From: Escherichia phage vB_Eco_Maverick | Length of the DNA: 42,624 nucleotides | Sequence record: NC_073077.1 | Strand: one strand, 5' to 3' | Part shown: positions 5,007 to 37,559 of the stretch, in pieces | How positions within the stretch are numbered: the first letter of the stretch is position 1 | Layout: each line of letters opens with the position of its first letter | Made by a program: the position numbers and the translations under genes | The notes under the pieces: model-generated | Seen by the model: the letters and a program-made list of their open reading frames with translations, nothing else | What the model was told of the DNA's origin: nothing | Databases searched by the model: none

Positions 5007-5614
5007 CCACGTTTAAATTGTACGGCGTCTTAGGGCGTCGTTTTGGTAAAGTGCATAAGCTGGACTGCTTCACACCGGGAGAAGGCATCACCGGCCTGTG
5101 TGTGAAGTTGCCAGGGTTACAAGACTTTTTAATGTCGGCCCACCTGGACAATATGATGTTCAAGGTGCGCAAAGGCAACCACACGATGACCGGTTATGAT
5201 GAGCTTGGCGAGTTCCACGGCGACCGCGTCGTTACCATCGCGCCGGTTATGACGGGGGCAAAAAGCGGACTGGGCCAATTGCTGGCGGGTGTCGCGATTG
5301 TAGTGGCGTCGTTCTATACTGGCGGACTTGCTACTGCCGCTTTCGGGGCTTCGGCTGCAACCGCTGCCGCTATCGGTACGGCTACATTTTCGTTTGGCAT
5401 GTCGCTTGCGCTGGGCGGTGCTATGCAATTGCTGTCGCCGCAGCCGAAAGGATTGCAGACCCGGCAGGACGTGGATAACAAAGCGTCGTACGCGTTCGGC
5501 GGGCCAGTGAATACAACAGCGCAAGGCACGGCGCTTGGTGTATTATGGGGCGAGCGTGAGATCGGCGGCGCTATTATTTCAGCCGGAATCGTAACCGAGG
5601 ACTTGAACGAATGA
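4997..5614 (+). CDS. tail assembly protein I-like
   Basis: 205 aa; C-terminal half is Gly/Ala-rich and hydrophobic (GLATAAFGASAATAAAIGTATFSFG); located between the K-like and J-like genes. Confidence 0.6.
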   Translation: MAMTTFKLYGVLGRRFGKVHKLDCFTPGEGITGLCVKLPGLQDFLMSAHLDNMMFKVRKGNHTMTGYDELGEFHGDRVVTIAPVMTGAKSGLGQLLAGVAIVVASFYTGGLATAAFGASAATAAAIGTATFSFGMSLALGGAMQLLSPQPKGLQTRQDVDNKASYAFGGPVNTTAQGTALGVLWGEREIGGAIISAGIVTEDLNE

Positions 5615-8600
5615 CGATTATCTACGACGTCACTGGGCATAAAGGCGGCGGCGGCAAACAGCACACCCCGCAGGAAACGCCGGATAGCCTGCATTCCCTG
5701 GCTAAAATTCGCATCTTGCTTGCGCTAGGGGAAGGGGAATTCGAAAGTATTACCAGCGACAGCGAATTACGGCAGCGTGTATATCTGGACGGCACGCCGA
5801 TCCAGAACGCCGACCTGTCGGAAAACTTCCCCGGCGCGCGCGTGGAGTTCCGCCCAGGCACACAGCACCAGGACGTGATCCACGGATTTTCAGCGGTGGA
5901 AAGTGAGCAATCCGTAGGCGTAAAACTGGAAAACGGCACGCCGTGGGTGCGCCAGATTAACGACACCAGTCTTGACGCCGTGCGCATTCGAATCGGCATT
6001 CCGGCCCTGTACACCAACGAAGACAACGGCGACCTGGTGGGCGGGCGCATCGACTATAAGATAGTTGTGTATACGGATAACGCCGACCCGCGTGAGTTCA
6101 GATTCGCCGCCGTTGGTAAAACAATGTCGCTATATGAGCGCGACCACCGCATCGAATTACCTCCGAACGTTAACACCGGCTGGCGCGTGGAGGTGCACCG
6201 CATAACGGCAGACTCCACATCGGCGAAAGTGGTTAATGATATCCGGGTGCAGTCCATCACTGAGATTATTGACGCCCGCCTGCGTTACCCGCTAACCGCG
6301 CTGTTGTTTGTGGAGTTCGACGCCAAAGCGTTCCAGAACATCCCGCGCGTGTCCATTAAGTGCAAAGGTCGCAAAGTTCTAATACCGAACAACTACGACC
6401 CGATCAATCATACCTATTCCGGGGACTGGGACGGCACGTTTAAACGCGCATGGACGGATAACCCTGCGTGGCACTGGTACGATATTTGTATTACTGAGCG
6501 CTTCGGCCTCGGTCGGCGTATCAAACCGCAAATGCTAAACCGATACGCGCTCTACCAGATTGCGCAGCGCTGCGATCAGTTGGTCAGCGACGGCAACGGT
6601 GGTCGAGAAATCCGCTTTAAGAATGATATGTACATTCAGTCACAGACGGATGCCTGGACCGTGCTTAAGGATTTAGCCGCTATCTTTGCCGGTATGACCT
6701 GGTGGGGAAATCAGATGTTGAATATCGTCAGTGACCAGCCGGTCGCAGCGGTATCGCACACCATCACCAACGCCTCGGTCATTGATGGTCGATTCGACTA
6801 CGCGTCCGGCAGCCAGAAAACTCGATATTCCACATTCGCGGTAGCATACGGCAACCCGAAGAACCACTATGAAGATGCCATTGCTACGGGGCAGCGTGTC
6901 GAACTGGTACGCCGCCATAAGATTAACCGTCTGGACATCACGGCGATCGGCTGTACGCGTGAATCTGAAGCGCAACGCCGCGGGCACTGGGCGCTAATCT
7001 CCAACCAGCTTGACCAGCAAGTTAGCTTTAAGGTTGGCATGGAGGGACTTTTCTTTATTCCGGGTAGCGTAGTCGCGATCGCGGATACAAACATTTCTGG
7101 CGGCTTCGAGACTCGCGGCGGTCGCCTGTTGTCGGATCCTGGCACGCGGACGGTGCTGAACACAGACAGCGAAATCACGTTCCGCCCTGGCGATAAATTC
7201 CTGGTACGCACCGATAGCGGTAATGTGGAGACTCGCGAGATCGCCAGCGTCAACGGCAACAAGGTTACGCTAAAAACCGCACTGGATGCCGACCCGATTC
7301 CGGACCAGCCGTTTTGCGTCGATGGCAACGATATCCAGTTGCAGAAGTTCCGCATCACCGACCTGGAATATGACGACTCTACCAGCACTTTTTCAGTGCG
7401 CGGGATTGAGTACAACGATAGTAAATATGATGCCGTTGATAATGGCGCTCGCCTTGATCCGGGCATCTTTACTCAAGTGCCTGACGGCGTAATGAAGGGG
7501 CCGGAGTCCGTGACCATCACCCCGTCGCAGATTTCATCGCAAGGCCAGCTAATCACCAACGTGGATATTGTATTCCCTCCGGTGAAGGACGCCGTGGTGT
7601 ATGAAATCCAGTGGCGGCGTACCAGCTTGCAGAATATGGAAATCCAGTGGGGTAACGACTGGGTTAACATCCCACGTACGGCGTCGAACGGCGCGCACAT
7701 CCCTAACGTGTTCTCAGGTAACTACCAAGCACGCGTCCGCGCAATCGGTATGGGCGAGATTTCATCCCCGTGGGTGTCGTCTGCCATCACGCCGATAGAA
7801 GGTCGTCTCGGCGGGCTTAACGCGCCTATCATCACCAACGCGATTTCTGGCCTCCACCAAATTTTGTGGAAGTGGAACCACAACAACGCCGCGACGGATA
7901 TTTCGTACACCGAGCTTGAAGTGCGCAAGACCGGTGAAACGGAATGGAAATTTCTTACCAACGTCCCATACCCAGGGTCAGATTATGCGCAAACGTCTCT
8001 GGAGTTCGGGATCTATCAGCAGTTGCGCGCCCGTGTAGCGGATAAAATCGGCAACCTATCGGACTGGTCCGCACCGTTTGAAGGCCAGGTGAGTGACAAA
8101 GTTGACGAGTACATGAAGGGGCTTGATGACGAGTTCTTGACTTCCGAGGATGGTAAACACTTCCAGGAAGCTATTAACACGATCCCGCAAGGCATTTATG
8201 AGTCAATGCTCACCGACGCCCAGCAGCTATTCAACGCCCGCGCCGAGTACAAAGGGATTTATGCGGAAATCAAGGTGGCGTATAACGTGGCGGCAGACGC
8301 CAACAAGGCGGTAGCACAACTGGAGACGTTGATCGGCACGCGACTTGAAGACGCCGAAGCGGCGATCCACACGTTGCAGACGGCGCAGAGTACGCAAGAG
8401 CAGGCCTTCGCCCAGTATCAGCAGACTGTTGCCGCTAAGTTTTCGGAACAGGAAGCCGCCATACAGCAGGTACAAACGGCAACTGCAGACGTCGCGGGCG
8501 CACTGGCGGAGTATAAGACCCAGGTCGCGGCACAGTTCGGTCAGCAGTCCGCCGCTATCGAGCAGAAGATGACGTCTTCGTTTAACCACTCCGGTGGTAG

Positions 8601-9429
8601 CGCCACGTACAGCCTTAAGGCGGGCGTGACGTACAACGGGACTTACTACGATGCAGGTATGCAGCTTTCCGTTGTGACGTCGGGCAGCGCTGTTAAATCA
8701 CGCATCGCGTTCAAGGCGGACCAGTTCTACATCATGCACCCGTCTAATGGGTCGCTTTCGTCTGCGTTTATCGTGGATGGCGGGCAGGTGTATATCAACA
8801 CGGCGCGCATTAAAGACGCATCTATCAACTTTGCGCAGATCACGGACACGCTGCAATCCAACAACTGGATTGCAGGGAGCAGGGGTTGGCGTATCGCGAA
8901 AGATGGAGGCGCGGAGTTTAACGCAGTAACGGTACGCGGCAACGTGTATGCGAATGATGGCGTGTTTAATGGTACGGTTTATGCAAGGGATGGGGTATTT
9001 ACCGGAACGGTCGAAGCTACCAGCTTTGTCGGTGACGTTGCAAATATGTGTGTTATTGGTGCGAAAGCAATACCTAACACAGGCAGGAATGGATCGAGGT
9101 CGTGGTCAGTGACTTTCAACGACTCGTCCAGGTCATCAAAACTAAAAGACTTTGTGTTGTTGTTAAGTTACTCACTGGTTGGGTACACCGCAAGCCAGTC
9201 AAGCCGCATTGCTGTTACCGCCAATATTGGTGGGAAAGTAGTCTCAAGGACTATTGAGCGGGCGGCAAGCGGAAACGCAATCCATACGATGATTCCTTTA
9301 GCTGCGAAAGGTGTAACGGCGGGAAGTGTAACAATTACAGTGACGGAAGAGTATACAAACGTCTACGGCAGCACATTGCATCCATCGGTAATATTAATGA
9401 CTCGCGGCACTGGTAGCTGGTCGCAATAA
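5611..9429 (+). CDS. host specificity protein J-like (central tail fibre / tail tip)
   Basis: 1272-aa ORF as last large gene of the tail operon; coiled-coil stretch and beta-rich C-terminal third typical of J-type receptor-binding proteins; translationally coupled to the I-like gene. Confidence 0.85.
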   Translation: MTIIYDVTGHKGGGGKQHTPQETPDSLHSLAKIRILLALGEGEFESITSDSELRQRVYLDGTPIQNADLSENFPGARVEFRPGTQHQDVIHGFSAVESEQSVGVKLENGTPWVRQINDTSLDAVRIRIGIPALYTNEDNGDLVGGRIDYKIVVYTDNADPREFRFAAVGKTMSLYERDHRIELPPNVNTGWRVEVHRITADSTSAKVVNDIRVQSITEIIDARLRYPLTALLFVEFDAKAFQNIPRVSIKCKGRKVLIPNNYDPINHTYSGDWDGTFKRAWTDNPAWHWYDICITERFGLGRRIKPQMLNRYALYQIAQRCDQLVSDGNGGREIRFKNDMYIQSQTDAWTVLKDLAAIFAGMTWWGNQMLNIVSDQPVAAVSHTITNASVIDGRFDYASGSQKTRYSTFAVAYGNPKNHYEDAIATGQRVELVRRHKINRLDITAIGCTRESEAQRRGHWALISNQLDQQVSFKVGMEGLFFIPGSVVAIADTNISGGFETRGGRLLSDPGTRTVLNTDSEITFRPGDKFLVRTDSGNVETREIASVNGNKVTLKTALDADPIPDQPFCVDGNDIQLQKFRITDLEYDDSTSTFSVRGIEYNDSKYDAVDNGARLDPGIFTQVPDGVMKGPESVTITPSQISSQGQLITNVDIVFPPVKDAVVYEIQWRRTSLQNMEIQWGNDWVNIPRTASNGAHIPNVFSGNYQARVRAIGMGEISSPWVSSAITPIEGRLGGLNAPIITNAISGLHQILWKWNHNNAATDISYTELEVRKTGETEWKFLTNVPYPGSDYAQTSLEFGIYQQLRARVADKIGNLSDWSAPFEGQVSDKVDEYMKGLDDEFLTSEDGKHFQEAINTIPQGIYESMLTDAQQLFNARAEYKGIYAEIKVAYNVAADANKAVAQLETLIGTRLEDAEAAIHTLQTAQSTQEQAFAQYQQTVAAKFSEQEAAIQQVQTATADVAGALAEYKTQVAAQFGQQSAAIEQKMTSSFNHSGGSATYSLKAGVTYNGTYYDAGMQLSVVTSGSAVKSRIAFKADQFYIMHPSNGSLSSAFIVDGGQVYINTARIKDASINFAQITDTLQSNNWIAGSRGWRIAKDGGAEFNAVTVRGNVYANDGVFNGTVYARDGVFTGTVEATSFVGDVANMCVIGAKAIPNTGRNGSRSWSVTFNDSSRSSKLKDFVLLLSYSLVGYTASQSSRIAVTANIGGKVVSRTIERAASGNAIHTMIPLAAKGVTAGSVTITVTEEYTNVYGSTLHPSVILMTRGTGSWSQ

Positions 9430-9703: not shown

Positions 9704-9783
9704 GGTATCATCTCCGGTATTGGGTTGAGTTTTAGTATTACACCGCTCAATCAAGAATGCAACCAATTTATGAGGATTCAGCT

Positions 9784-10272
9784 ATGGCAGCGGGCACACT
9801 ATCCGTAACGAATAACAGCAAGGCGGTTGTCGGAGTAGGCACAACGTTTACCGCGTTTAAAGCTGGCGACTTCTTAACGCTGGTGGTAGGGCAAGTCCCC
9901 TACACCGTGGCAATCGCGTCCATTGAAAGCGCAACCGAGCTTACGCTGGTGCTGCCGTTCGACGGCCCAACGGCAACCGGCCTTGCGTGGGATGGCGTTA
10001 AGCGCGATACCATGTCGCTGGCAACGATGGGCGTTACCGTACAGGCCCAAAAAGCATTGCGCTTGATGATTGCAGATGAAAACAACTGGCGTGCAATCTT
10101 CGGCGACGCTGAAGAAATCACAGTGACGTTACCTACCGGGCAAGTTATGCAGGGTATGTCGTGGGGCTACCTGTCGCAGCTAATGAAGCAGATTCGCCCC
10201 GTTGAAATCGCGGAATTAAAAGCTGCCGTTGAGGAGTTGAAAGCCGCGGTCGCGGCACTGACAAAAGCATAA
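9784..10272 (+). CDS. hypothetical tail-associated protein (N-terminal domain paralogous to 2879-3478)
   Basis: GAGGA Shine-Dalgarno before ATG 9784; N-terminus GTLSVTNNSKAVVGVGTTF resembles 2879 ORF; C-terminal coiled-coil (EIAELKAAVEELKAAVAAL); followed by terminator. Confidence 0.5.
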   Translation: MAAGTLSVTNNSKAVVGVGTTFTAFKAGDFLTLVVGQVPYTVAIASIESATELTLVLPFDGPTATGLAWDGVKRDTMSLATMGVTVQAQKALRLMIADENNWRAIFGDAEEITVTLPTGQVMQGMSWGYLSQLMKQIRPVEIAELKAAVEELKAAVAALTKA

Positions 10273-16625: not shown

Positions 16626-18916
16626 TATTTCCTGTACCTGTACATAATGTCGCCTTCCGCGGCAAGCGGGAAGCCTTTCGCCCAAACAGGCAGGTCGCAC
16701 ATCAGCGCGCACAACTCCTCGGTTGTGTAGTCGTCAGTATCCGGAACTTCGGTTATCAGTTCATCGTGTACGGACAGTACGATCTCATATCCCGCAGCTT
16801 CAACGCCAGGCATGGACCATGCGAGGATATCGCGACACAGCGCCTGTACGATGTTTTCCGTGAGTTTGCCGCCGTAGGTGTACTGGAAGCCCCACTGGCG
16901 GGTCGTCTGATTCTCGCCCTGATATTTAATGCGGGTGCTGGTGCGTTTCTTGCCAGTATCTTCGTCGATCTCGGTAGTGACAGACAGCGCAATGCCCGGA
17001 TAACTCATAATACGCCCCGACGGCAACTCAATTTTCAACCACCACCCCGCGGCGTTCGGGTCGTCGCGTTCCTCGTCGAAGGTTGGGTCATGCTTCGCCT
17101 TCGTGCGGACTATCTTGAGCGCTTTCTTACCATCCGGGCGAACGTTCGCGCCAGCCCAGTACGCTTTGCCAGGATTGCGGATTGCACACAACACCGCGTC
17201 CTCAAGCTCGGCCCAAAAGGCTACCGTCTTCGGGTGGGCCTCACGCCACATGCGTTTGATCGCGTCGCAGGTCAGCCAAACGTTTTTAGGCAGTATGTAA
17301 GTCGGGCGCTCGTCCTTCTTGCCCGGCTTCGGCGGTCGCTTCGCTTCGTTAATGCGGGCGTACTCATAACCCCGTTTAGCCGCTGCCCAAATGTGATCGG
17401 GGAATGTGCCCTTCATGACGTCCGCCATCGCGTAAAGGTCGAGGCCCAGGTTTTTAGCGAACTGCAAGAACGCAGCCACGCCGCCGCCATAGCCAAGTCC
17501 CAACTCACACGCCTTACCAATCTGGCGTAGGTCTTTGCGGTTGGCTTTAATGTATTCCGGGTCAAGGCCGAACATCTTACCGGCAGTTTCACAATAAATA
17601 TCGCGACCGGCCCTAAACACCATTAGCGCGGTTTTCTCACCAGCGATCCAGGCGAGGCCACGCCCTTCCACGTTAGAGTAGTCCGCTACGACAAACTTCT
17701 TGCCCTTAGCCGGGATAATGCACCCGCGAACGGTCGAGGCTGTTAGCTTAGATATGTCATACGCCCAGTGCGCGGTCCCGCGTAACAGGGAATTGATGCC
17801 GTTGGTGAGCATGTGCGACCGGACCCAAAAAGCAACGTCGCTCTCGCCTTCGCGGCGCTTAATCTTCCCTTCGTGATCGTCGCTATACTCGCCGCGTGCC
17901 AGGTTTTGAGGCTGGAAGCCTTTACCAGCCCAGCGCAGCGTGCGCTTTGCGCCACCATACTGAAGACACCCACGGCGGCGACCATCTGCGGATAAGCCGT
18001 TAACTAGCGGATTGTACTTAGTCGATGCCGTTGATGACGCACCGAGGCGCATTTCGATAAGCGCTTTGCCTTCGTCGGGGAAGTCCGGGTCTTCAAGCAG
18101 GTCGTTAAGTGTGGATTTCTGCGCGTTGTGTATCGTGAATGCTGGCGCAATATCACGCAGGATTGGCAGGAAGTCATTGCCGGTCAGCTTACCGCCAAAC
18201 CGCTCCCAGGCTTCTTCCTTCAATTCTTCCTTATGCGCCTGCACCGCTTTGATCGCGGCGTTCGCCAGGTCAACGTCAACGTAGAAGCCGCGGTCGTTAA
18301 TCAACTGGTCGATGAGCAGGATTTCATCTTCCTTCGGTGAGTTGCCCCAGTCCGGTATGCGCCAGTAGACTTCACGCATGGCAACAATATCCAGCGCGGC
18401 ATAGCGCAAGAATTTGGCCCATTCTTCGGGGTGCGTCTCGCGTGTGTAGCGGCGGATTTTGTAGGTCTTAGGGGTGGGCTTACAGAATCGTTTAATCAGC
18501 GCCTTGCCTGCCTTATCCTTCGCGTGCTCTGCGTCAACGCCCAGCACCTGACACTGCATATCGAGGCTGCCCGGCAGCGCGTGCCGAAAGGCCATAATCA
18601 TGGTATCTTCGATCTGGCTTACCGGCAGGTCGATGCCCCACTTCTCACGGATAACCAGGCGGTCAAACAGGAGGCCGTTAGCCATCACTATTTTTGCTTT
18701 CTTGCGGGATACATGGCGGAGCGCCTTGCGCAGTTCACGCGGCATTGTGGGGGATTCAGTGCAATCCCATGTCTGCACGCGGCCTTCGTCGATGGCGTAG
18801 GTGCAAATCATAATCTCGGTGGTTGGGTGCTCTGCGTAGGCGTACGCCCCTACTTTCTTCAGGTCCACCCCGCTAAATGTCTCGGTGTCGAGAAACAGAC
18901 GTTCGAAGTCTTTCAT
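16625..18916 (-). CDS. family A DNA polymerase (Pol I-like, with 3'-5' exonuclease domain)
   Basis: Exo I motif FLDTETFS at the N-terminus; polymerase motif A VADYSNVEGRGLAWIAGE, motif B KACELGLGYGGGVAAF, motif C LSVHDELITEV. Confidence 0.95.
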   Translation of the reverse strand: MKDFERLFLDTETFSGVDLKKVGAYAYAEHPTTEIMICTYAIDEGRVQTWDCTESPTMPRELRKALRHVSRKKAKIVMANGLLFDRLVIREKWGIDLPVSQIEDTMIMAFRHALPGSLDMQCQVLGVDAEHAKDKAGKALIKRFCKPTPKTYKIRRYTRETHPEEWAKFLRYAALDIVAMREVYWRIPDWGNSPKEDEILLIDQLINDRGFYVDVDLANAAIKAVQAHKEELKEEAWERFGGKLTGNDFLPILRDIAPAFTIHNAQKSTLNDLLEDPDFPDEGKALIEMRLGASSTASTKYNPLVNGLSADGRRRGCLQYGGAKRTLRWAGKGFQPQNLARGEYSDDHEGKIKRREGESDVAFWVRSHMLTNGINSLLRGTAHWAYDISKLTASTVRGCIIPAKGKKFVVADYSNVEGRGLAWIAGEKTALMVFRAGRDIYCETAGKMFGLDPEYIKANRKDLRQIGKACELGLGYGGGVAAFLQFAKNLGLDLYAMADVMKGTFPDHIWAAAKRGYEYARINEAKRPPKPGKKDERPTYILPKNVWLTCDAIKRMWREAHPKTVAFWAELEDAVLCAIRNPGKAYWAGANVRPDGKKALKIVRTKAKHDPTFDEERDDPNAAGWWLKIELPSGRIMSYPGIALSVTTEIDEDTGKKRTSTRIKYQGENQTTRQWGFQYTYGGKLTENIVQALCRDILAWSMPGVEAAGYEIVLSVHDELITEVPDTDDYTTEELCALMCDLPVWAKGFPLAAEGDIMYRYRK

Positions 18917-28205: not shown

Positions 28206-28223
28206 TTATGCAAGCGTGATATA

Positions 28224-28257
28224 GTCCCAGTGAGCTAAAACTTACTGGGACTTTTTT
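28224..28257 (+). terminator. rho-independent terminator immediately upstream of the holin start
   Basis: gtcccagtgag-ctaaaa-cttactgggac stem (one G-U pair) followed by tttttt, then ATG 28258. Confidence 0.6.
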
Positions 28258-28548
28258 ATGGATAAGCTAAACGAGTGGTTATTCGCCCTCGCATGTCTGG
28301 CAGGCGGCTTCGTAGGCGCACGCATTCATGGCGAGGCTACGAAAGGCCCGCTGAACTTCGTGTTATATATCGTGGTCGGCTTCTTGTGCGCCATTTTCGG
28401 TGCGCCAGCTATTGCCGAGTGGGCGGGCCTATCTGGCGAGCGCACTGTTGCCGGGTTGGGCTTCGTAACTGCAATCTTCTGGATGCCAATAGCCGCCCGG
28501 ATCAGGGAGACTATTGAGTCGTTCCGACTTCCGGGGGGCGCAAAATGA
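28258..28548 (+). CDS. holin
   Basis: 96 aa with three predicted transmembrane helices and a charged C-terminus; first gene of the holin/endolysin cassette. Confidence 0.6.
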   Translation: MDKLNEWLFALACLAGGFVGARIHGEATKGPLNFVLYIVVGFLCAIFGAPAIAEWAGLSGERTVAGLGFVTAIFWMPIAARIRETIESFRLPGGAK

Positions 28549-28790
28549 TTATCTCCGTCCTGTTGTTTGTTATCATAGGGGCTTCGTCCCTGTTTAACGT
28601 GTATGCGCCGTCCGTCCAGGATGGTGTTTTAGGCCGGGTGCTATATCTGCTAACGGCGATGATCTGCGTTATCGGATTGTTGCAAACAGGAGACGTATCT
28701 GACACCACCTGGACCGCGTTAATCTGGCTGTTTGCATTGCGCACGCTGCGTAATGCTGTTTTGAATGGGGTAAAACATGCGATTCAGTGA
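28545..28790 (+). CDS. second small membrane protein (holin/antiholin-like)
   Basis: 81 aa, two to three hydrophobic helices (ISVLLFVIIGASSLF, VLYLLTAMICVIGLL, ALIWLFAL); overlaps both neighbours. Confidence 0.5.
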   Translation: MIISVLLFVIIGASSLFNVYAPSVQDGVLGRVLYLLTAMICVIGLLQTGDVSDTTWTALIWLFALRTLRNAVLNGVKHAIQ

Positions 28791-29268
28791 CAACGGTCTA
28801 CGATTTACGGCAGCATGGGAGACGTTTAGCCCGGTGCCGTATTTCGCGACTAAGAAAGAGCAGGCCCGCGGCCTGTACACCTGGGGTTATGGTCACACTG
28901 GCACTAACCCGCCTCGAAGCATTACCCGCGCGGAAGCGCTGGAGCTACTTAAGCGCGATGTGGCGTATGCTGAGGACTGGGTGAACAAATACGCGCATAA
29001 GAGCATTAACCAGGCGCAATTCGACGCGCTGGTGGACCTAGTTATCAATGCAGGTCAAGGTCCGATCGTACCGGACCATATTGCCAATGACTTCGACGAC
29101 GCGGTGCGCTTGGGCGACTGGGCGAAGGTCCGTGCTACGCTGCCGCAGTTCCGCAAGCAAGGCGGCGAAGTGCTTAAGGGTCTGGTACGCCGTGCAATCG
29201 GCAGACAGGCGTTGTTTGATGGTAAGCAGTGGGACGTTGCCGAACGAATCGGTCGTAACGCTGCATAA
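28777..29268 (+). CDS. endolysin, T4-type lysozyme (glycoside hydrolase family 24-like)
   Basis: Catalytic-region signature TAAWETFSPVPY...GLYTWGYGHTG (Glu followed by Asp/Thr spacing as in phage lysozymes); 163 aa; follows holin genes. Confidence 0.8.
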   Translation: MRFSDNGLRFTAAWETFSPVPYFATKKEQARGLYTWGYGHTGTNPPRSITRAEALELLKRDVAYAEDWVNKYAHKSINQAQFDALVDLVINAGQGPIVPDHIANDFDDAVRLGDWAKVRATLPQFRKQGGEVLKGLVRRAIGRQALFDGKQWDVAERIGRNAA

Positions 29269-29284
29269 TACGAGGTGACACGAT

Positions 29285-29452
29285 ATGTTAAAAAGTATTC
29301 TTGATCATAATGCGGACGCGCTTGCCGCACTGGCTAAAACCGAAGACCCAGGCGCACGCGCTATCATCGCGGACTCTATCAACCACGCCGGGGTCTTCGA
29401 TGCGAAGCTGCCAAGCCCACCACCGCAGGAGGAATCTGGCCCCGCAGCGTAA
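29285..29452 (+). CDS. small hypothetical protein
   Basis: 55-aa ORF found by eye with GAGG Shine-Dalgarno; followed by a terminator. Confidence 0.3.
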   Translation: MLKSILDHNADALAALAKTEDPGARAIIADSINHAGVFDAKLPSPPPQEESGPAA

Positions 29453-29460
29453 ACAATTAA

Positions 29461-29484
29461 GCCCGGAATTAACCGGGCTTTTTA
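29461..29484 (+). terminator. rho-independent terminator after the lysis cassette
   Basis: gcccgg-aattaa-ccgggc stem followed by ttttt. Confidence 0.7.
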
Positions 29485-29666: not shown

Positions 29667-30809
29667 ATGCACCCGCAAACTAAAATTACCGATGAGCAAT
29701 TGATCGCAGAAATTCAGGCAGGGACTACGGTTAAAGAGATTGCGAAGAAATACGGCATTGCACTTCGAAATGTCTATATGCGCAAAGCCCGCCTGTCGAA
29801 AAAGGGGATTGGTCATGGCAATGATGCCGTGATCCGTAAGCGCGTTGCCGATGGCTTTGGGGTTAAGCGCGTATCGGCCCTGGTGCGCGGTAATGGCGAA
29901 GAGGTCATGTCGTGGGTCATCACTGAGCAGGACAAGGAGCGCCAACTCGAAGCTATGCGCGCTGTTGTCGAGGGTATGAACAGCGAAATCACACCGGCAG
30001 CGCCAGTAAACGCCCCGCCAGTACCGATCCAGGCGCTAGACTTGCTCAACCTGTACACCGTGTCCGACTTCCACCTGGGTATGTTGGCATGGGGCGAGGA
30101 GACTGGCGAAGACTGGGATATGGCGATAGCCGAAGACCTGTTCTACCGCTGGTTTGTCGAAGCCTTCGCCCGCGCCCCGGACGCAGGCACTGCCGTAATT
30201 AATATCCTCGGTGATATGGCCCACTTTGATAGCCTCGATGCTGTCACTCCGGCAAGTGGTCACATACTGGACGCCGACACCCGATACCAGAAGTTGGTCC
30301 GCTACATGATTCGCATGGTGCGCAACGTCGTCGAACTTGCCCTGCAAAAACACCACAAAGTCAAACTGCTAATCGTCCAGGGGAATCATGATGAGTCGGG
30401 CATGATTTGGCTTGCTGAGATGTTCAACACGCTGTACGAGAACGAGCCGCGCGTCGATGTGGATACGTCCCCGGACGTCTACAAAATGGTGCAGCACGGC
30501 AAGACCACGCTATTTTTCCACCACGGGCATAAAGCGCGCTTTGACGCTATCGAAACCGTCATGATTTCTAAATTCAGACAGGCTTTCGGGGCCAGTGAGT
30601 ACAGCTACGCGCACGTAGGCCACTTGCACCACCAGAAGATTGTAGAATCCCGCAACATGATTGTTGAACAGCACCGGACGCTCGCAGCGAAAGACGCCTA
30701 CGCCAGTCGTGGCGGTTGGATGAGCGGTCGCAGCGCAAACGTCATCACCTATAGCGCCAACTACGGCGAAGTAGCGCGCTTAACCATTAGCCCGGAAATG
30801 TTGAAGTAA
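29667..30809 (+). CDS. HTH-containing calcineurin-like metallophosphoesterase (SbcD/Mre11-like)
   Basis: N-terminal HTH TTVKEIAKKYGIALRNVYMRKAR; phosphoesterase motifs in order SDFHLG, GDMAHFD, GNHDE, HHGH, GHLHH; lies immediately upstream of terS. Confidence 0.65.
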   Translation: MHPQTKITDEQLIAEIQAGTTVKEIAKKYGIALRNVYMRKARLSKKGIGHGNDAVIRKRVADGFGVKRVSALVRGNGEEVMSWVITEQDKERQLEAMRAVVEGMNSEITPAAPVNAPPVPIQALDLLNLYTVSDFHLGMLAWGEETGEDWDMAIAEDLFYRWFVEAFARAPDAGTAVINILGDMAHFDSLDAVTPASGHILDADTRYQKLVRYMIRMVRNVVELALQKHHKVKLLIVQGNHDESGMIWLAEMFNTLYENEPRVDVDTSPDVYKMVQHGKTTLFFHHGHKARFDAIETVMISKFRQAFGASEYSYAHVGHLHHQKIVESRNMIVEQHRTLAAKDAYASRGGWMSGRSANVITYSANYGEVARLTISPEMLK

Positions 30810-30939
30810 CGGCAACCCATAAGCCTCCCAGCCTGCCGATTTGGTGGGCTTTTTTGTGCCTGTTATAATCCCCCTTAGATGGCAGGGCCGTCTCCTATGT
30901 TGCCGATGGTCGGCGCATATGAACAAAAGGGCTTATATC

Positions 30940-31491
30940 ATGGCAGAAATTAAAGTTAAGGGCCGACGCGCCAAACTGGACGGACGAGTAGCAGTAACCC
31001 CTCGCCGTAAACCAGGCGAGCAAACCGAGCACACCAATCTCGGACCTGAAATCGAGTACGGAAAGCGCCGTAAAGGCGGCAAATGTGGACGCCCTACTGA
31101 CTACCGATCCGTTTACTGCGACCAGCTTCGCCGCTATTTTGCCGACGCCGACGCATGGCAGGTCAACTACTCCGATAAAGGCGCTGCGCAAGTAATCCCC
31201 CGGAACAAAATGCCAACCTTCGGCCGATTTGCCGCTGAAATCGGCGTGGGCGTAGCTTGCTTGTATCGCTGGGCGCGTGCGCATGAGGAGTTTGCCGAGG
31301 CGATGGCGGACGCAATGGAGTTGCAGAAAACTTTCCTGATGGAAGCTGGCGGCGTAACCATCGCGGCGGGCTTCGCTACGTTCCTGCTTAAAGCAAACCA
31401 CGGCGTCCGCGACGATGTACCGCTGGATGACGACGAAGATGATAACGGCGACGTAGTTGTCGAACCTTCCGGCAAAGGTCAGGGTGAATAA
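30940..31491 (+). CDS. terminase small subunit
   Basis: 183-aa basic N-terminus and acidic C-terminus, directly upstream of and overlapping the large terminase; start at MAEIKVKG with AAGG Shine-Dalgarno, alternative starts at 30919 or 30841. Confidence 0.6.
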   Translation: MAEIKVKGRRAKLDGRVAVTPRRKPGEQTEHTNLGPEIEYGKRRKGGKCGRPTDYRSVYCDQLRRYFADADAWQVNYSDKGAAQVIPRNKMPTFGRFAAEIGVGVACLYRWARAHEEFAEAMADAMELQKTFLMEAGGVTIAAGFATFLLKANHGVRDDVPLDDDEDDNGDVVVEPSGKGQGE

Positions 31492-32886: not shown

Positions 32887-34407
32887 ATGACCGTTAACGT
32901 TGACAACCAGCACCCGCTCTATGCGCGCATCGCGCCAGAGTGGAAAATGATCCGCGATTGTGTGGCAGGGGAGCGCGCCGTGAAGGCGTGCGGCCCCTTG
33001 TACTTGCCTCATCCCGCCAGTGGCGACAATACGGACCCGAAAGCACGGGCGCGGTATAAGGCGTACAAGCAACGCGCTGTATTCCTGAACGCCACCGCCC
33101 GCACACTTAACGCGCTGTTAGGCGTTGCCTTTGCTAAACCGGTAAGTCTGGACCTTTCCGGGGCGATGGCTGACCTGATTGACGACGTAGACGGCAGCGG
33201 TATGCCTCTGCCGCAACTACTGCGCGGTGCTATGTCGGAAGTGCTGCAATCAGGCCGTGCGGGCTTTATGGTGGACTACGATCGCCAGGCGCATTTTGAT
33301 GAACTGGGTAACGTAGTTCCGCAGACAGCCGCCGAGATGGCGTCACACCGCCCTCTTATCCGCCTGTACACGGCAGAACAGATCATCAACTGGCGGCAGA
33401 CCCACGGCGTCGATACGCTAATTGTGCTGAAGGAAACGGACGAAATCAGCACCGAAGACCCGGACGACTTCGCAAACCACGAAGTAACAATCTGGACCGA
33501 GCTTCGCATGATTAACGGTGCGGCACACGCCCGCCGCTGGTACTACAACGCGGACACGTCCGAGGTGCAAATGGACTTGCCGCGCGGCTTCACCCGAACC
33601 GACCTTGTACCACTGGTGGATGCTGCCGGTAACGCGCTTACGCAACTACCGTTTTGCTGGTGCGGTGCGGTGGACAACAACGCAACGCCTGACGCCGCTC
33701 CGCTGGCGGATATCGCATCCATCAACATTAAGCACTACAACGCCGAAGCGGACGTCGCCGAGATTGCGCACATCGTGGGCCAGCCTACCCTAGTTGCGAC
33801 GGGCTTGACCCAATCATGGGCGGACAAGAACCTGAAGGGCGGCATTGCCCTCGGTGCGACTAAGGGCGTTATCCTGGGCCAGAACATGGACGCTAAACTG
33901 ATCCAGGCGGAGGAGCGCAACTTGTCTGTTGCACTGTGTGAGCGTCGCGAATTGCAAATGGCTAAACTTGGCGCGGCCCTGGTCGAGAAGGGGACCGCAC
34001 CTAAGACGGCAACGGAAGCGGCCTACGATGCGCAGACTGATAACAGTATCCTGTCACTGATCGCCGGTAACGTCGAGAAGGCTTTCAACCGTGCGCTGCA
34101 AATCGTCCAGCTATTCACGGGCGACACCGCCGACCAGCGTGTGACGCTGAATAAGTTCTACACCGAAATCACGGTTGATGCGCAGCTTATGACCGCGATG
34201 ATGTCGGGTGTGCAGACGGGTACGGTCCGCCTGGCTGACTTCATCAAGTGGATGATGGCGCAGGGTGTCATCGACGACTCGCAAACCGTCGAGCAGGTGG
34301 AAGACGAATTGCGAAATCAGAATCCATTGCCTCAAATGTCCCCTGATGCGGTAGAATCTACCGAAGAAGACCCGGACAAGGTAGCGGACAATGGCGAAGA
34401 CAATTAA
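32887..34407 (+). CDS. portal protein
   Basis: 506-aa ORF directly after the terminase with acidic C-terminus; size and position typical of portal. Confidence 0.8.
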   Translation: MTVNVDNQHPLYARIAPEWKMIRDCVAGERAVKACGPLYLPHPASGDNTDPKARARYKAYKQRAVFLNATARTLNALLGVAFAKPVSLDLSGAMADLIDDVDGSGMPLPQLLRGAMSEVLQSGRAGFMVDYDRQAHFDELGNVVPQTAAEMASHRPLIRLYTAEQIINWRQTHGVDTLIVLKETDEISTEDPDDFANHEVTIWTELRMINGAAHARRWYYNADTSEVQMDLPRGFTRTDLVPLVDAAGNALTQLPFCWCGAVDNNATPDAAPLADIASINIKHYNAEADVAEIAHIVGQPTLVATGLTQSWADKNLKGGIALGATKGVILGQNMDAKLIQAEERNLSVALCERRELQMAKLGAALVEKGTAPKTATEAAYDAQTDNSILSLIAGNVEKAFNRALQIVQLFTGDTADQRVTLNKFYTEITVDAQLMTAMMSGVQTGTVRLADFIKWMMAQGVIDDSQTVEQVEDELRNQNPLPQMSPDAVESTEEDPDKVADNGEDN

Positions 34408-35494
34408 TCAACATTTGGCGGATCGAATGATTCGCCGTCACATCTTCACCCAGCGCCTGAGCAATGATCAGGCGCGGAGGGTGCTGGCTATGTGGGAGAA
34501 GTTCCGGCCCACTTTACTTGGTAAGCTGACCGAGTTACTTGATGGCAAAAAGTCCATGAGCAACAAGGCACTTACCACACTGTTAACCCAAATCGACAAG
34601 ACCGTCAAAACGGAACTGCGCGCCGAGTTTAAAGTGCTGGCGGAGAGCCTTCAGGAGTTCGCCGACACCGAGGCTGATTATCTCGCGGACACACTAACGG
34701 CAGCGATCCAGCCCGCTGTCGCTGTACCAGCGGTTGAGGTGGTGGGTGTAGTTACGGGCGCGCAGATTGCAGCGACTGCAATGAAAAACCCGTTCCAGGG
34801 AAACACCATGATGCAATGGCCTGATTCACTTTCCGAGTGGACTAGGACGCAGATCGGCAATCAGGTGCGCGCTGGATTCATCCAGGGCAAGCCGACGATG
34901 GAAATTATCGCGGATGTGAGGCGCGCGCTAGGCGGTCGTAGTGCGCAAGCAATCTCAAGCGTTGTTAAGTCCGCGGTCAACCACTATGCGGCGACCGCCC
35001 GCGAATTAATGGTAAAAGCTAATGACGATATTCTCGAAGGTCGCCAATGGTTGGCTACATTGGACACGCATACTTCTCCCATGTGCCAGCTACGCGATCG
35101 CCTGTTTTATCCGGTTGATGTTACCCCCGACACCAAAGGAAAGCGCGGCGGGAAAGTGGTGGCGGGGTCACAATATGGCGCTGGTCCGGGCAAGCTGCAT
35201 TATTGCTGCCGTTCGACGGAGACGTGGAAAGTCAAAGGTATGGAAGATTGGCCCAGTGGTAAGCGTCCGGCACTGAAGGCTGACGCAGGCAGATTGCTGA
35301 GTGAGCAGGTCGACGCGCAGACTGATTTCTTCTCATGGGTGCAGCGCCAGCCGCGCCATATTCTGGAGGAATTATATGGGGTGCAGCGCGCCGATCAGAT
35401 TATGCGCGGCGTGAAAGTGCCGAAGATGTTCACCGATACTGGCGAACTAATGACTATTGCACAGCTTAAAAACCGGGGGTTATGGCGTGATTAA
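34391..35494 (+). CDS. minor head protein (Mu F / SPP1 gp7-like head morphogenesis protein)
   Basis: 367 aa following the portal; conserved-looking segment WLATLDTHTSPMCQLRDRLFYPVD as in head morphogenesis proteins. Confidence 0.7.
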   Translation: MAKTINQHLADRMIRRHIFTQRLSNDQARRVLAMWEKFRPTLLGKLTELLDGKKSMSNKALTTLLTQIDKTVKTELRAEFKVLAESLQEFADTEADYLADTLTAAIQPAVAVPAVEVVGVVTGAQIAATAMKNPFQGNTMMQWPDSLSEWTRTQIGNQVRAGFIQGKPTMEIIADVRRALGGRSAQAISSVVKSAVNHYAATARELMVKANDDILEGRQWLATLDTHTSPMCQLRDRLFYPVDVTPDTKGKRGGKVVAGSQYGAGPGKLHYCCRSTETWKVKGMEDWPSGKRPALKADAGRLLSEQVDAQTDFFSWVQRQPRHILEELYGVQRADQIMRGVKVPKMFTDTGELMTIAQLKNRGLWRD

Positions 35495-35816
35495 GTATGC
35501 AGCGATTGGGCTGGTTATCGGTCTGGTGGTAGGATTCTGGCTAGGTGACTCCTATCGCGCTGGCGTAGTGGCGGGGGCGGCGCAAGAAGCGCAAGCAGAA
35601 GCCCAACGGCAGCAAACTAAAGTTATTGAGCGCTCCGTGCAGGCCGAACAAGCCCGCGACGTAGAATACCGGACTATCACGAAAGAGGTTGTTAAATATG
35701 TTACGCGCCCTAACCGCCCTGATTGTAGTTTTGATGCTGAGCGCGTGCGGATCAAGCAACGTGCCGTTGATGCCGCTAACGGAGTCGGCACTGCGACCGC
35801 CGTGCAAGTTCGATAA
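35457..35816 (+). CDS. i-spanin (Rz-like) candidate
   Basis: N-terminal transmembrane helix (AAIGLVIGLVVGFWLG) followed by a charged coiled coil; contains an embedded out-of-frame lipoprotein ORF; true start may be an internal GTG. Confidence 0.5.
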   Translation: MHSLKTGGYGVIKYAAIGLVIGLVVGFWLGDSYRAGVVAGAAQEAQAEAQRQQTKVIERSVQAEQARDVEYRTITKEVVKYVTRPNRPDCSFDAERVRIKQRAVDAANGVGTATAVQVR

Positions 35817-35928
35817 CCCGTCCGCGGACCCCGACGAAGATTTGATGATTGACGTGAAAAATATGGAATGCGGCGCGAAGCTAAGGGCGCAAGTGCTGGA
35901 TTTGCAGAAAATAATTCGGGGGCTGTGA
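35689..35928 (+). CDS. o-spanin (Rz1-like outer-membrane lipoprotein) candidate
   Basis: Signal peptide plus lipobox LMLSAC, Pro-rich mature part, embedded in the +1 frame of the i-spanin candidate. Confidence 0.55.
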   Translation: MLNMLRALTALIVVLMLSACGSSNVPLMPLTESALRPPCKFDNPSADPDEDLMIDVKNMECGAKLRAQVLDLQKIIRGL

Positions 35929-35942
35929 TGGCCCCCTTTTGT
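35918..35942. terminator. hairpin terminator between convergent genes
   Basis: gggggc-tgtgatg-gccccc stem followed by tttt on the plus strand. Confidence 0.55.
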
Positions 35943-36710
35943 TAGCGCGGAATACCGCAGATTTCGTTTAACGTCTTCACGTCCAGCGCCACCGCCGTGG
36001 ATTTTGGCTTGTCAGGGTAAGGAATGAACTGTTCCACTTCAGGCCACGCCTTGATCAGCTTCTTATCGGTATTGTGCATATCCAGCACACCGGTAACGGT
36101 TAGTTTGAACGCGTCATAATTAGCTCGCAACTCGCGGCGGGCCTTGTCGTTGCGATCCAGGCACTTACAGAAATCATGGTCCGCCGGGTAGTCTACGCGA
36201 CCGCGCGGAAGATATATCGGCAGCGATTTTCCGTCCTCGTCCACTTCGCACACTGAAGCCAGCATAACTTCCTCGTACCCCGGTACGATATCACCGAGAT
36301 CGGGAGATAGCTTGTTCATATATTTCTCTTCCCAGTATCCGCGGTGCAGGCGGTATCGGTATCCATCGCCGCTCAATGATACGGTGCGAACATTACCGCC
36401 TGCGTTGATATCGAATCCGGCGCTATAAACGCTGCCGATGCCTTTTGGCCGGTCGGAGTTATAGCTATACGTCGCCTTGTCGGTGTAAACGCTAACGCCA
36501 TACATCTGCGACTGGTTATCGCGGATTTCTGCGATATATGCGCGTAACTCGGCGAACGTGCGAATGCCTTCCGGCATACAGTCCAGCGTAATGGCGTACG
36601 CCAAGTCGCGAGAGTCCATCATGATGGATTTTGCTTCGGTCGCGATTTCATGGTCGCGCAGGATGTTAGCCAGAATCTTGTTTTTAACGTCTTTTGTCAG
36701 TCTCATTTTT
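35942..36710 (-). CDS. hypothetical protein, moron-like gene on the opposite strand inside the structural module
   Basis: 256-aa product starting MRLTKDVKNKIL at ATG 36710; own promoter and leader upstream; the longer frame to 37114 is antisense to the scaffold gene. Confidence 0.55.
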
Positions 36711-36734
36711 GCGTCCTCGTTGTTGGTGTGCAAC

Positions 36735-36763
36735 CAATATATGCAACCAATACGCGGATTGCA
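36735..36763 (-). promoter_or_regulatory. sigma70-like promoter TTGCAA-N17-TATATT for the moron gene
   Basis: Palindromic TTGCAA at 36758-36763 and minus-strand TATATT at plus 36735-36740; followed by leader ggttgcacaccaaca shared with the 26353 gene. Confidence 0.4.
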
Positions 36764-36854
36764 AGCGAATTTTGCGATTATTTTTATCACTGATAATATT
36801 AGAGGCGTGAAGTCGAGCGGGTGGCCCGCTCTGCCACAATCCCAGGGGGATAGC

Positions 36855-37559
36855 ATGAAACTTACTAAAGCAGAATATGACGCGTTGCCGGAAGGTATGA
36901 AGGCGCTTTTTGTTGCCGATGGCGACGGGTATAAATCAACTTTCATGACCGCAGAAGAAGTACAGGCGGAAATCAAGGGTCTGAAAGACAACAACGCGAA
37001 GCTGGTGAGCGAGAAGAAAGCAGAAGCTGAACGCCGCGCCGAAGCTGAGCGCCTTGCGAAAGAGAAAGAGGAAGCCGCCGCGCGCAAAAATGGCGACCTC
37101 GAAGCGATCGACAAGTCCTGGAAAGATAAGTTTGCGAAACACGAAGCAGATACATCGGGAAAAATCGAAGCCTACCGCAAGCAGATCCACGATCTAACCA
37201 TCGGCAGCGCTGCCAAAGACCTGGCGTCGAAGCTGTTCGGTAAGAATGCGGGAATCATGCAACGCCACGTAATGGACCGCCTGACGCTGGAAGACGGCGA
37301 AGACGGCAGCTTGAAAGTGCGTGTCTTGCAGGATGGCAAACCGTCCGCGCTGACTATGGAAGAGCTTGAAAAAGAGTTCCGTAATAACGCCGATTTTGCA
37401 TCAGTCCTGGCTGGCACGCCAGCCGGTGGCGCGCCTAGCAAACCGACGCAGGTTGTCGAAGATGTGAAGTCTAAAATTACGATGGGCCACAGCTTCGGTA
37501 TCACTGACCTTACGAAACAGGCAGGTGAAATCATCGCTAAGATGGGCGACGACGAGTAA
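36855..37559 (+). CDS. capsid scaffolding protein
   Basis: 234 aa, highly charged coiled-coil centre (EKKAEAERRAEAERLAKEKEEAAARK), located directly upstream of the major capsid gene; AGGGGGA Shine-Dalgarno. Confidence 0.6.
   Translation: MKLTKAEYDALPEGMKALFVADGDGYKSTFMTAEEVQAEIKGLKDNNAKLVSEKKAEAERRAEAERLAKEKEEAAARKNGDLEAIDKSWKDKFAKHEADTSGKIEAYRKQIHDLTIGSAAKDLASKLFGKNAGIMQRHVMDRLTLEDGEDGSLKVRVLQDGKPSALTMEELEKEFRNNADFASVLAGTPAGGAPSKPTQVVEDVKSKITMGHSFGITDLTKQAGEIIAKMGDDE

Follow-up and report, generated by a model that had tools for sequence, protein, structure and literature searches.

We asked whether two partly shared ORFs lying 3' of the minor head protein gene of Escherichia phage vB_Eco_Maverick (NC_073077.1), one coding for a protein with an N-terminal transmembrane helix and the other, in a different frame, for a putative lipoprotein, encode a spanin, which architecture they have and whether their position in the genome is exceptional. 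The initial annotation of this DNA (42,624 nucleotides, analysed at its full length and called the window hereafter) had regarded them as an embedded i-spanin/o-spanin pair. In our estimate it is about 90% probable that the locus is an overlapped two-component spanin belonging to the published 'Jersey' family, carried by a Dhillonvirus coliphage. We infer the lysis function of the pair from the homology, the anatomy and the context of both genes. The pair and its separation from the holin and endolysin genes are already known and open no new biological question. Coordinates of all features are given in Table 1.

Comparison of nucleotides 34300..37200 with the GenBank phages by megablast yielded 157 records, nearly all of them Escherichia/Shigella Dhillonvirus (HK578-like siphoviruses). 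The top match was Escherichia phage slur05, with 99.3% identity over 100% of the 2.9-kb query, and 80% or more of this stretch was covered in 138 records. Since almost all matches belong to that genus and the identity to slur05 is so high, the window is, judged by its nucleotide sequence, a near-complete genome of a Dhillonvirus, an HK578-like coliphage.

Table 1. Features of the putative spanin locus, its neighbours and the holin and endolysin genes, in positions of the window
Feature	Position	Strand	Description
Holin gene	28258..28548	+	96 aa; phrog_2359 holin, E 1e-31
Second holin-like gene	28545..28790	+	81 aa; phrog_2508 holin, E 1e-26
Endolysin gene	28777..29268	+	Lysozyme family; Pfam Phage_lysozyme, E 3.5e-21; phrog_7 endolysin
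Head morphogenesis (minor head) gene	34391..35494	+	phrog_241, E 6.8e-117; annotation of relatives; stop overlaps i-spanin start
Longest ORF of i-spanin frame	35457..35816	+	TTG start, 119 aa (program ORF list)
i-spanin gene	35487..35816	+	GTG start, 109 aa; phrog_2536 Rz-like spanin, E 4.4e-36
Codons of i-spanin transmembrane helix, YAAIGLVIGLVVGFWLG	35496..35546	+	Kyte-Doolittle hydropathy; kept in all relatives examined
Shine-Dalgarno-like AAAGAGG	35682..35688	+	9 nt 5' of o-spanin ATG; read from the sequence
Longest ORF of o-spanin frame	35689..35928	+	TTG start, 79 aa (program ORF list)
o-spanin gene	35698..35928	+	+1 frame, ATG start; precursor of 76 aa, mature protein of 60 aa; phrog_5672, E 6.3e-26, and phrog_1267, E 5e-12, both Rz-like spanin
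Dual-coding overlap	35698..35816	+	119 nt; C-terminus of i-spanin, signal peptide and linker of o-spanin
Terminator-like hairpin	35918..35940	+	GGGGGC-TGTGAT-GCCCCC, then TTTT; consensus scan

Analysis of the i-spanin frame indicated that translation most likely starts at GTG 35487 rather than at TTG 35457, since in the relative L016 a stop codon is found between the position equivalent to the TTG and the GTG, and since the GTG is the annotated i-spanin start in the phages slur05 and KarlBarth. The first 8 nt of the i-spanin gene, counted from this GTG, are at the same time the last 8 nt of the head morphogenesis gene. Both ORFs listed initially are present, while the stop codon of L016 tells against the TTG start that had been proposed for the first of them.

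Hydropathy analysis recovered the N-terminal transmembrane helix that had been claimed for this ORF as the sole hydrophobic stretch of the protein, located at residues ~4-20 with a Kyte-Doolittle 15-residue maximum of 2.49 at residue 5. The i-spanin is predicted to be a small inner-membrane protein with this single helix and with its remainder presumably in the periplasm. The periplasmic domain consists of 89 aa, is charged and contains one Cys (Cys80, codon 35724-35726); a low-confidence AlphaFold model made from the single sequence (mean pLDDT 61) placed helices at residues 4-72 and 84-97 with the Cys in the loop between them. A crude heptad-periodicity test for a coiled coil in this domain gave a score no better than that of shuffled sequences (348/1000), and the coiled coil named in the initial annotation was not supported by it. 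The C-terminus of the i-spanin varies within the genus, and certain members are 7 residues shorter with a different tail. In lambda Rz the C-terminus is the contact site, and this is the part that varies in the Dhillonvirus i-spanins.

The start of the o-spanin is predicted at ATG 35698 and not at TTG 35689, since in the relatives L005, L006 and L010 the frame opens merely one codon ahead of the ATG. The Shine-Dalgarno-like sequence preceding it lies within the codons of the i-spanin motif ITKEVVKY, which is kept down to homologues of 34-40% identity. The N-terminus of the deduced protein, MLRALTALIVVLMLSA followed by CGSS, comprises a basic n-region, a hydrophobic core and the lipobox LSAC ending at Cys17 (codon 35746-35748), with Gly at position +2. 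These are the features of a small outer-membrane lipoprotein with a predicted signal peptidase II signal and with no inner-membrane retention residue at +2. Pro accounts for 6 of the first 29 residues of the mature protein, which carries two further conserved Cys, Cys36 and Cys58, and the claim of a Pro-rich lipoprotein in the other frame was thus confirmed. A low-confidence AlphaFold model of the single sequence (pLDDT 55) showed a helix for the signal peptide, then a disordered linker rich in Pro and, at residues 53-75, a helix at the C-terminus.

When all six frames of the window were scanned for lipoprotein signals, only four loci emerged, of which the o-spanin locus alone shares sequence with the 3' end of a gene coding for a transmembrane helix. 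A second locus, adjoining the tail fibre gene, is a lipoprotein gene in its own right. The other two hits, with lipoboxes at 17813 and 21481, are antisense inside long minus-strand ORFs and look spurious. A 55-aa ORF beside the endolysin gene (29285..29452), considered as a spanin, lacks any hydrophobic segment, and its PHROG has no assigned function. Neither the lipoprotein-signal scan nor the check beside the endolysin gene found a further spanin candidate in the window.

The two genes share 119 nt, and the o-spanin gene ends 112 nt past the i-spanin stop (35928 and 35816, respectively). By the definitions of Kongari et al. 2018 (PMC6139136) the architecture is overlapped and not embedded, since the o-spanin continues beyond the end of the i-spanin, and on this point the initial annotation has to be corrected. 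The comparison with relatives that it had called for revealed that the pair, its layout and its Cys residues are kept in 22 related loci, all overlapped, with o-spanin extensions of 109-133 nt. Down to ~35% identity these loci have retained the transmembrane helix, the lipobox Cys and the three periplasmic Cys with both frames intact. The conserved Cys occur in the motifs P(D/x)C(S/K)FD of the i-spanin and PPC and EC of the o-spanin; every o-spanin carries a lipobox-like motif with Cys as its last residue, and Asp is absent from position +2 throughout. At least one periplasmic Cys is found in 507 of 528 spanin systems (Kongari 2018, PMC6139136), as it is in the pair described here.

The spanin family to which these genes belong was deduced from similarity searches and from published annotations. 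The i-spanin and the o-spanin of phage KarlBarth (MZ501088, BASEL collection), whose authors used the SpaninDataBase for spanin annotation, are annotated at homologous positions, and the first gene is annotated as Rz-like spanin in the slur05 RefSeq record, in which only one of the pair is annotated. The 'Jersey' family of overlapped two-component spanins comprises both subunits of phages EK99P-1, EP23, HK578, JL1, SSL-2009a and SO-1 (Kongari et al. 2018, PMC6139136), and tblastn searches with the i-spanin found identities of 95% to EK99P-1 and 83% to SO-1. The family reaches, by tblastn, 665 phage records, chiefly Salmonella Jerseyvirus and Kagunavirus; in Jerseyvirus S532 the i-spanin is 36% (E 7e-10) and the o-spanin 46% (E 2e-14) identical to the window proteins. 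Similarity of both subunits places the pair, as far as sequence can tell, in the Jersey overlapped family. Scans of both proteins against Pfam and NCBIfam gave no lysis-related family at E <=0.1 and only chance-level matches, and the weak NCBIfam matches of the o-spanin (MepS, LptM) span just the lipoprotein signal; on the evidence of these scans, the pair is distinct from the Rz/Rz1 sequence family of lambda. In many GenBank records of such phages just one gene is annotated, one or both are labelled hypothetical, the o-spanin is cut short or the names of the two are exchanged.

The holin and endolysin genes were found where the initial annotation had put them, at 28258-29268, by their PHROG and Pfam matches. 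An N-terminal membrane anchor is not obvious in the endolysin sequence. The i-spanin start lies 6219 nt 3' of the endolysin stop, and the pair, located after the minor head gene as had been reported, is not contiguous with the holin and endolysin genes. Seven annotated genes lie in between: the 55-aa ORF, an exonuclease, a small hypothetical gene, both terminase subunits, the portal and the head morphogenesis gene. On its other side the o-spanin gene is convergent with the Nmad5 gene, and the terminator-like hairpin between them carries the o-spanin stop codon in its loop. This hairpin is a match to the terminator consensus whose fold of -17.7 kcal/mol has a z-score of only -1.4 relative to shuffled sequences.

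The distance from the holin and endolysin genes was correctly given by the initial annotation, while the description of this position as unusual did not hold beyond the comparison with lambda. At least 138 Dhillonvirus records show the pair in this position. The homologous pairs of Jerseyvirus vB_SenS_S532 and of the Kagunavirus-like phage GertrudWoker_Bas73 lie between head morphogenesis/decoration and scaffold genes; the holin and lysin genes of S532 are ~8 kb upstream of the spanin pair, and those of GertrudWoker_Bas73 were absent from the 14.8 kb examined. Separation of the spanins from the other lysis genes has been stated in print for phage Schulenberg (PMC6763661), and the T4 spanin genes are located away from t and e (Kongari et al., PMC6139136). 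For this lineage the separated position is conserved, already documented and not unusual.

A position among structural genes, 6.2 kb away from the holin and endolysin, might nevertheless be expected of an envelope system with no part in lysis, acting for example in superinfection exclusion or receptor masking, and such a role would explain the location in the head module. Phage lipoproteins such as Cor and Llp do act in exclusion, and the literature searched contained no experimental test of any Jersey or Dhillonvirus spanin. Against this reading, three metagenomic viral contigs (L018-L020) carry pairs of 36-40% identity that have the same PHROG and the overlapped layout. The gene order of L020 is Q-like antiterminator, methyltransferase, holin, endolysin, i-spanin/o-spanin and terminase, which is a canonical lambdoid lysis cassette, and the order of L019 is identical. 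Since these distant homologues lie directly 3' of holin and endolysin genes, they support a lysis role of the pair. Moreover, the window contains no other spanin candidate, its separate lipoprotein gene adjoins the tail fibre gene, which is the usual place of exclusion lipoproteins, and the spanins of T4 are likewise unlinked to holin and endolysin. We therefore regard a non-lysis system as very unlikely, and the two genes as a probable spanin.

Selection on both frames was determined from an alignment of the 442-nt locus of 18 Dhillonvirus sequences, 17 of them distinct, using pairwise Nei-Gojobori-type counts. Variable sites of the part coding for the i-spanin only were found at 45/70 third positions and 11/70 second positions of i-frame codons, those of the part coding for the o-spanin only at 23/38 third positions of the o-frame versus 6/37, while in the overlap they were divided between the third positions of the i-frame and of the o-frame. 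The pN/pS ratio of the i-only part was 0.17 in the i-frame versus 1.2-2.2 in the other frames, and that of the 112-nt o-only part was 0.13 in the o-frame versus ~4.0 in the other frames. The overlap showed ratios of 0.53 and 0.54 in the two coding frames versus 4.2 in the third frame, and its pS values (0.11-0.13) were below those of the single-coding parts (0.30-0.37). The pN/pS ratios together with the codon-position patterns indicate purifying selection on both genes and a double constraint on the overlap.

These counts bear on two further readings. According to one, the genes are dispensable spanin relics and another factor disrupts the outer membrane; the variable i-spanin C-terminus would agree with it, as would the ~15% of phages of Gram-negative hosts that do without spanins, a figure given in a preprint (bioRxiv 10.1101/515445), but strong purifying selection acts on both genes within the genus and beyond and both frames are intact in 22/22 related loci, so that relics are highly improbable. 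Least probable of all is that only the transmembrane ORF is real and the +1-frame lipoprotein ORF is an untranslated product of chance: overlapping ORFs can arise in this way and many GenBank records, including the slur05 RefSeq, annotate one gene, but the o-only part evolves as o-frame coding sequence, synonymous change is suppressed in both frames of the overlap, the ATG, the Shine-Dalgarno sequence, the lipobox Cys and the two other Cys are kept to ~35% identity, and the deduced protein matches PHROG spanin families. An overlapped Jersey-type spanin thus remains the reading that we adopt, and the i-spanin/o-spanin function proposed at the outset is borne out by the PHROG matches, the annotation of relatives, the published catalogue, the selection test and the distant cassettes, with the embedded label dropped.

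Spanins have no part in setting the time of lysis and do no damage as long as the murein is in place. How the pair would act we infer by analogy with lambda Rz/Rz1 and T4 PseT.3/PseT.2, which applies to localisation, complex formation, membrane fusion and expression timing alike. Late in infection, the transcript of the head-assembly genes would supply both proteins; translation of the i-spanin would be coupled to that of the head morphogenesis gene, and that of the o-spanin would begin at its own Shine-Dalgarno sequence and ATG inside the i-spanin gene. The i-spanin would be inserted in the inner membrane by its N-terminal helix and expose its helical domain to the periplasm, while the o-spanin would be lipidated at Cys17, cut by signal peptidase II and, since it has no Asp at +2, sorted to the outer membrane. 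Joined across the periplasm, the two proteins would be threaded through the murein mesh, which would restrain the complexes, and the conserved Cys, one in the i-spanin and two in the o-spanin, may provide stabilising disulfides. Following holin triggering and destruction of the murein by the endolysin, the freed complexes would collapse and fuse the inner and outer membranes, which would eliminate the final barrier to release. Since spanins do no harm until the murein is gone, linkage to the holin and endolysin genes would be unnecessary and the displaced position could be tolerated.

It is doubtful that the placement in the head operon has been functionally selected rather than being a historical accident. 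This reading starts from a placement conserved in Dhillonvirus, Jerseyvirus and the Kagunavirus-like phage, with the pair coupled in translation to the head gene and followed by a terminator-like hairpin; if it were true, selection could, for example, tie the spanin dose to capsid gene expression. With the pair assigned as a spanin, the lysis gene set of the phage comprises two holin-family genes, an endolysin and a spanin. A spanin search confined to the lysis cassette would miss the pairs of Dhillonvirus and of Guernseyvirinae-like phages, and their correct annotation bears on the engineering of such phages and on their use in therapy.

Comparison with lambda Rz/Rz1 revealed in both systems an inner-membrane protein with an N-terminal anchor, a small Pro-rich lipoprotein in the +1 frame and periplasmic Cys. 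In lambda, Rz1 lies wholly inside Rz and both genes directly follow S and R, while here the o-spanin runs past the i-spanin stop and the pair is remote from the holin and endolysin; the proteins are also smaller here (109 and 76 aa), with no Pfam Rz/Rz1 match. The C-terminal helix predicted for the o-spanin, in a low-confidence model, is lacking in Rz1 and brings the protein closer to the described T4 PseT.2. The LysB/LysC genes of phage P2 are located in the lysis cassette. In this overlapped prototype as in the window, the i-spanin gene contains the +1-frame start of the o-spanin gene, which ends beyond it (PMC6139136). Sequence similarity to the P2 proteins was not detected here. The T4 PseT.3/PseT.2 genes are similarly unlinked to the holin t and endolysin e genes and code for proteins of similar sizes (117 and 83 aa), and the T4 o-spanin resembles that of the window in its two periplasmic Cys and in the helix predicted at its C-terminus; unlike the genes described here, those of T4 do not overlap and the T4 i-spanin has no Cys.

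No substantive difference was found from the members of the Jersey family (HK578, EK99P-1, JL1 and SSL-2009a, which are Dhillonvirus, and Sodalis phage SO-1), which have the same genes in the overlapped layout. Compared with Jerseyvirus, the window proteins are ~36-46% identical and the o-spanin start is shifted downstream by 8 codons; the two genes share 119 nt here, while 155 nt was reported for Jersey (Kongari et al. 2018, PMC6139136). Escherichia phage Schulenberg, a Guernseyvirinae-like phage of another genus compared by its description, has the same separated arrangement (PMC6763661).

Embedded and overlapped architectures have never been found in one family (Kongari 2018, PMC6139136). 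Locus L022 carries an embedded spanin pair whose i-spanin resembles the overlapped i-spanin of the window in its N-terminal half. It is improbable that L022 connects the two architectures; if it did, it would be the first link between them.

Analysis of the i-spanin sequences revealed that the most conserved motif, ITKEVVKY / ITRDVVKY / ITREVVKY (35668..35700 in the window), is also found in the metagenomic viral contigs L018-L020, in the viral contig L022, in Salmonella phage vB_SenS_S532 (L025) and in L026. The DNA encoding this motif contains, read in the +1 frame, the Shine-Dalgarno sequence and the ATG of the o-spanin; therefore, the conservation of the motif may partly reflect the o-spanin translation signal rather than i-spanin function.

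Comparison of the i-spanins of L022 and the window showed 34% identity over the N-terminal half of the L022 protein through the motif TITKEVVKY (BLASTP E 9e-9); the L022 o-spanin showed no similarity. The L022 pair has the embedded architecture and the window pair the overlapped one. The two architectures have been reported never to occur in one family (Kongari 2018, PMC6139136), and the L022 pair is a possible bridge between them.

In the RefSeq annotation of vB_SenS_S532 the label o-spanin is on the upstream 128-aa gene, which bears the transmembrane helix, while the label i-Spanin is on a 47-aa fragment without a signal peptide; the two labels appear to be interchanged. The complete o-frame starts farther upstream than this annotated fragment and carries the lipobox LLSGC. 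PHROG 5672 is just 47 positions long, probably because of truncated gene calls such as this one.

Coordinates of the features discussed (window unless stated)
Feature	Position	Strand or frame	Remarks
Lipoprotein gene, 80 aa	9461..9703	-	phrog_12984 'lipoprotein', E 6e-41
Terminator-like hairpin	28223..28252		
Terminator-like hairpin	29459..29480		
Nmad5 (nucleotide modification associated domain 5) gene, 254 aa	35942..36706	-	Pfam E 3e-55
Sigma-70-like promoter-like site	36764..36736	-	just upstream of Nmad5 gene start
L022 i-spanin	7941..8444		
L022 lipoprotein frame (o-spanin)	about 8209..8409	+1	
L025 (NC_073188) spanin locus	8776..9271		

The two terminator-like hairpins flank the holin-holin-endolysin block together with the next 55-aa ORF, which suggests that the lysis cassette may be a transcription unit of its own, apart from the spanin-bearing packaging and head genes. 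The Nmad5 gene lies between the spanin pair and the scaffold gene, in the orientation opposite to the head module.

The interval from endolysin to portal is 219 nt longer in slur05 than in the window (window about 30809..30940; slur05 5311..5523). In slur05 the exonuclease gene is followed by the small hypothetical gene gp34, and the 219-nt gap is consistent with the absence of this gene.

The gene for the 80-aa lipoprotein, whose sequence begins MKTLIKNLIIPAACLLMAAC, is convergent with the end of J (5611..9429), which encodes the central tail fibre, and a tail fibre gene (9757..10272) comes just after the lipoprotein gene. Its gene position suggests a putative Cor/Llp-type, receptor-blocking superinfection exclusion lipoprotein.
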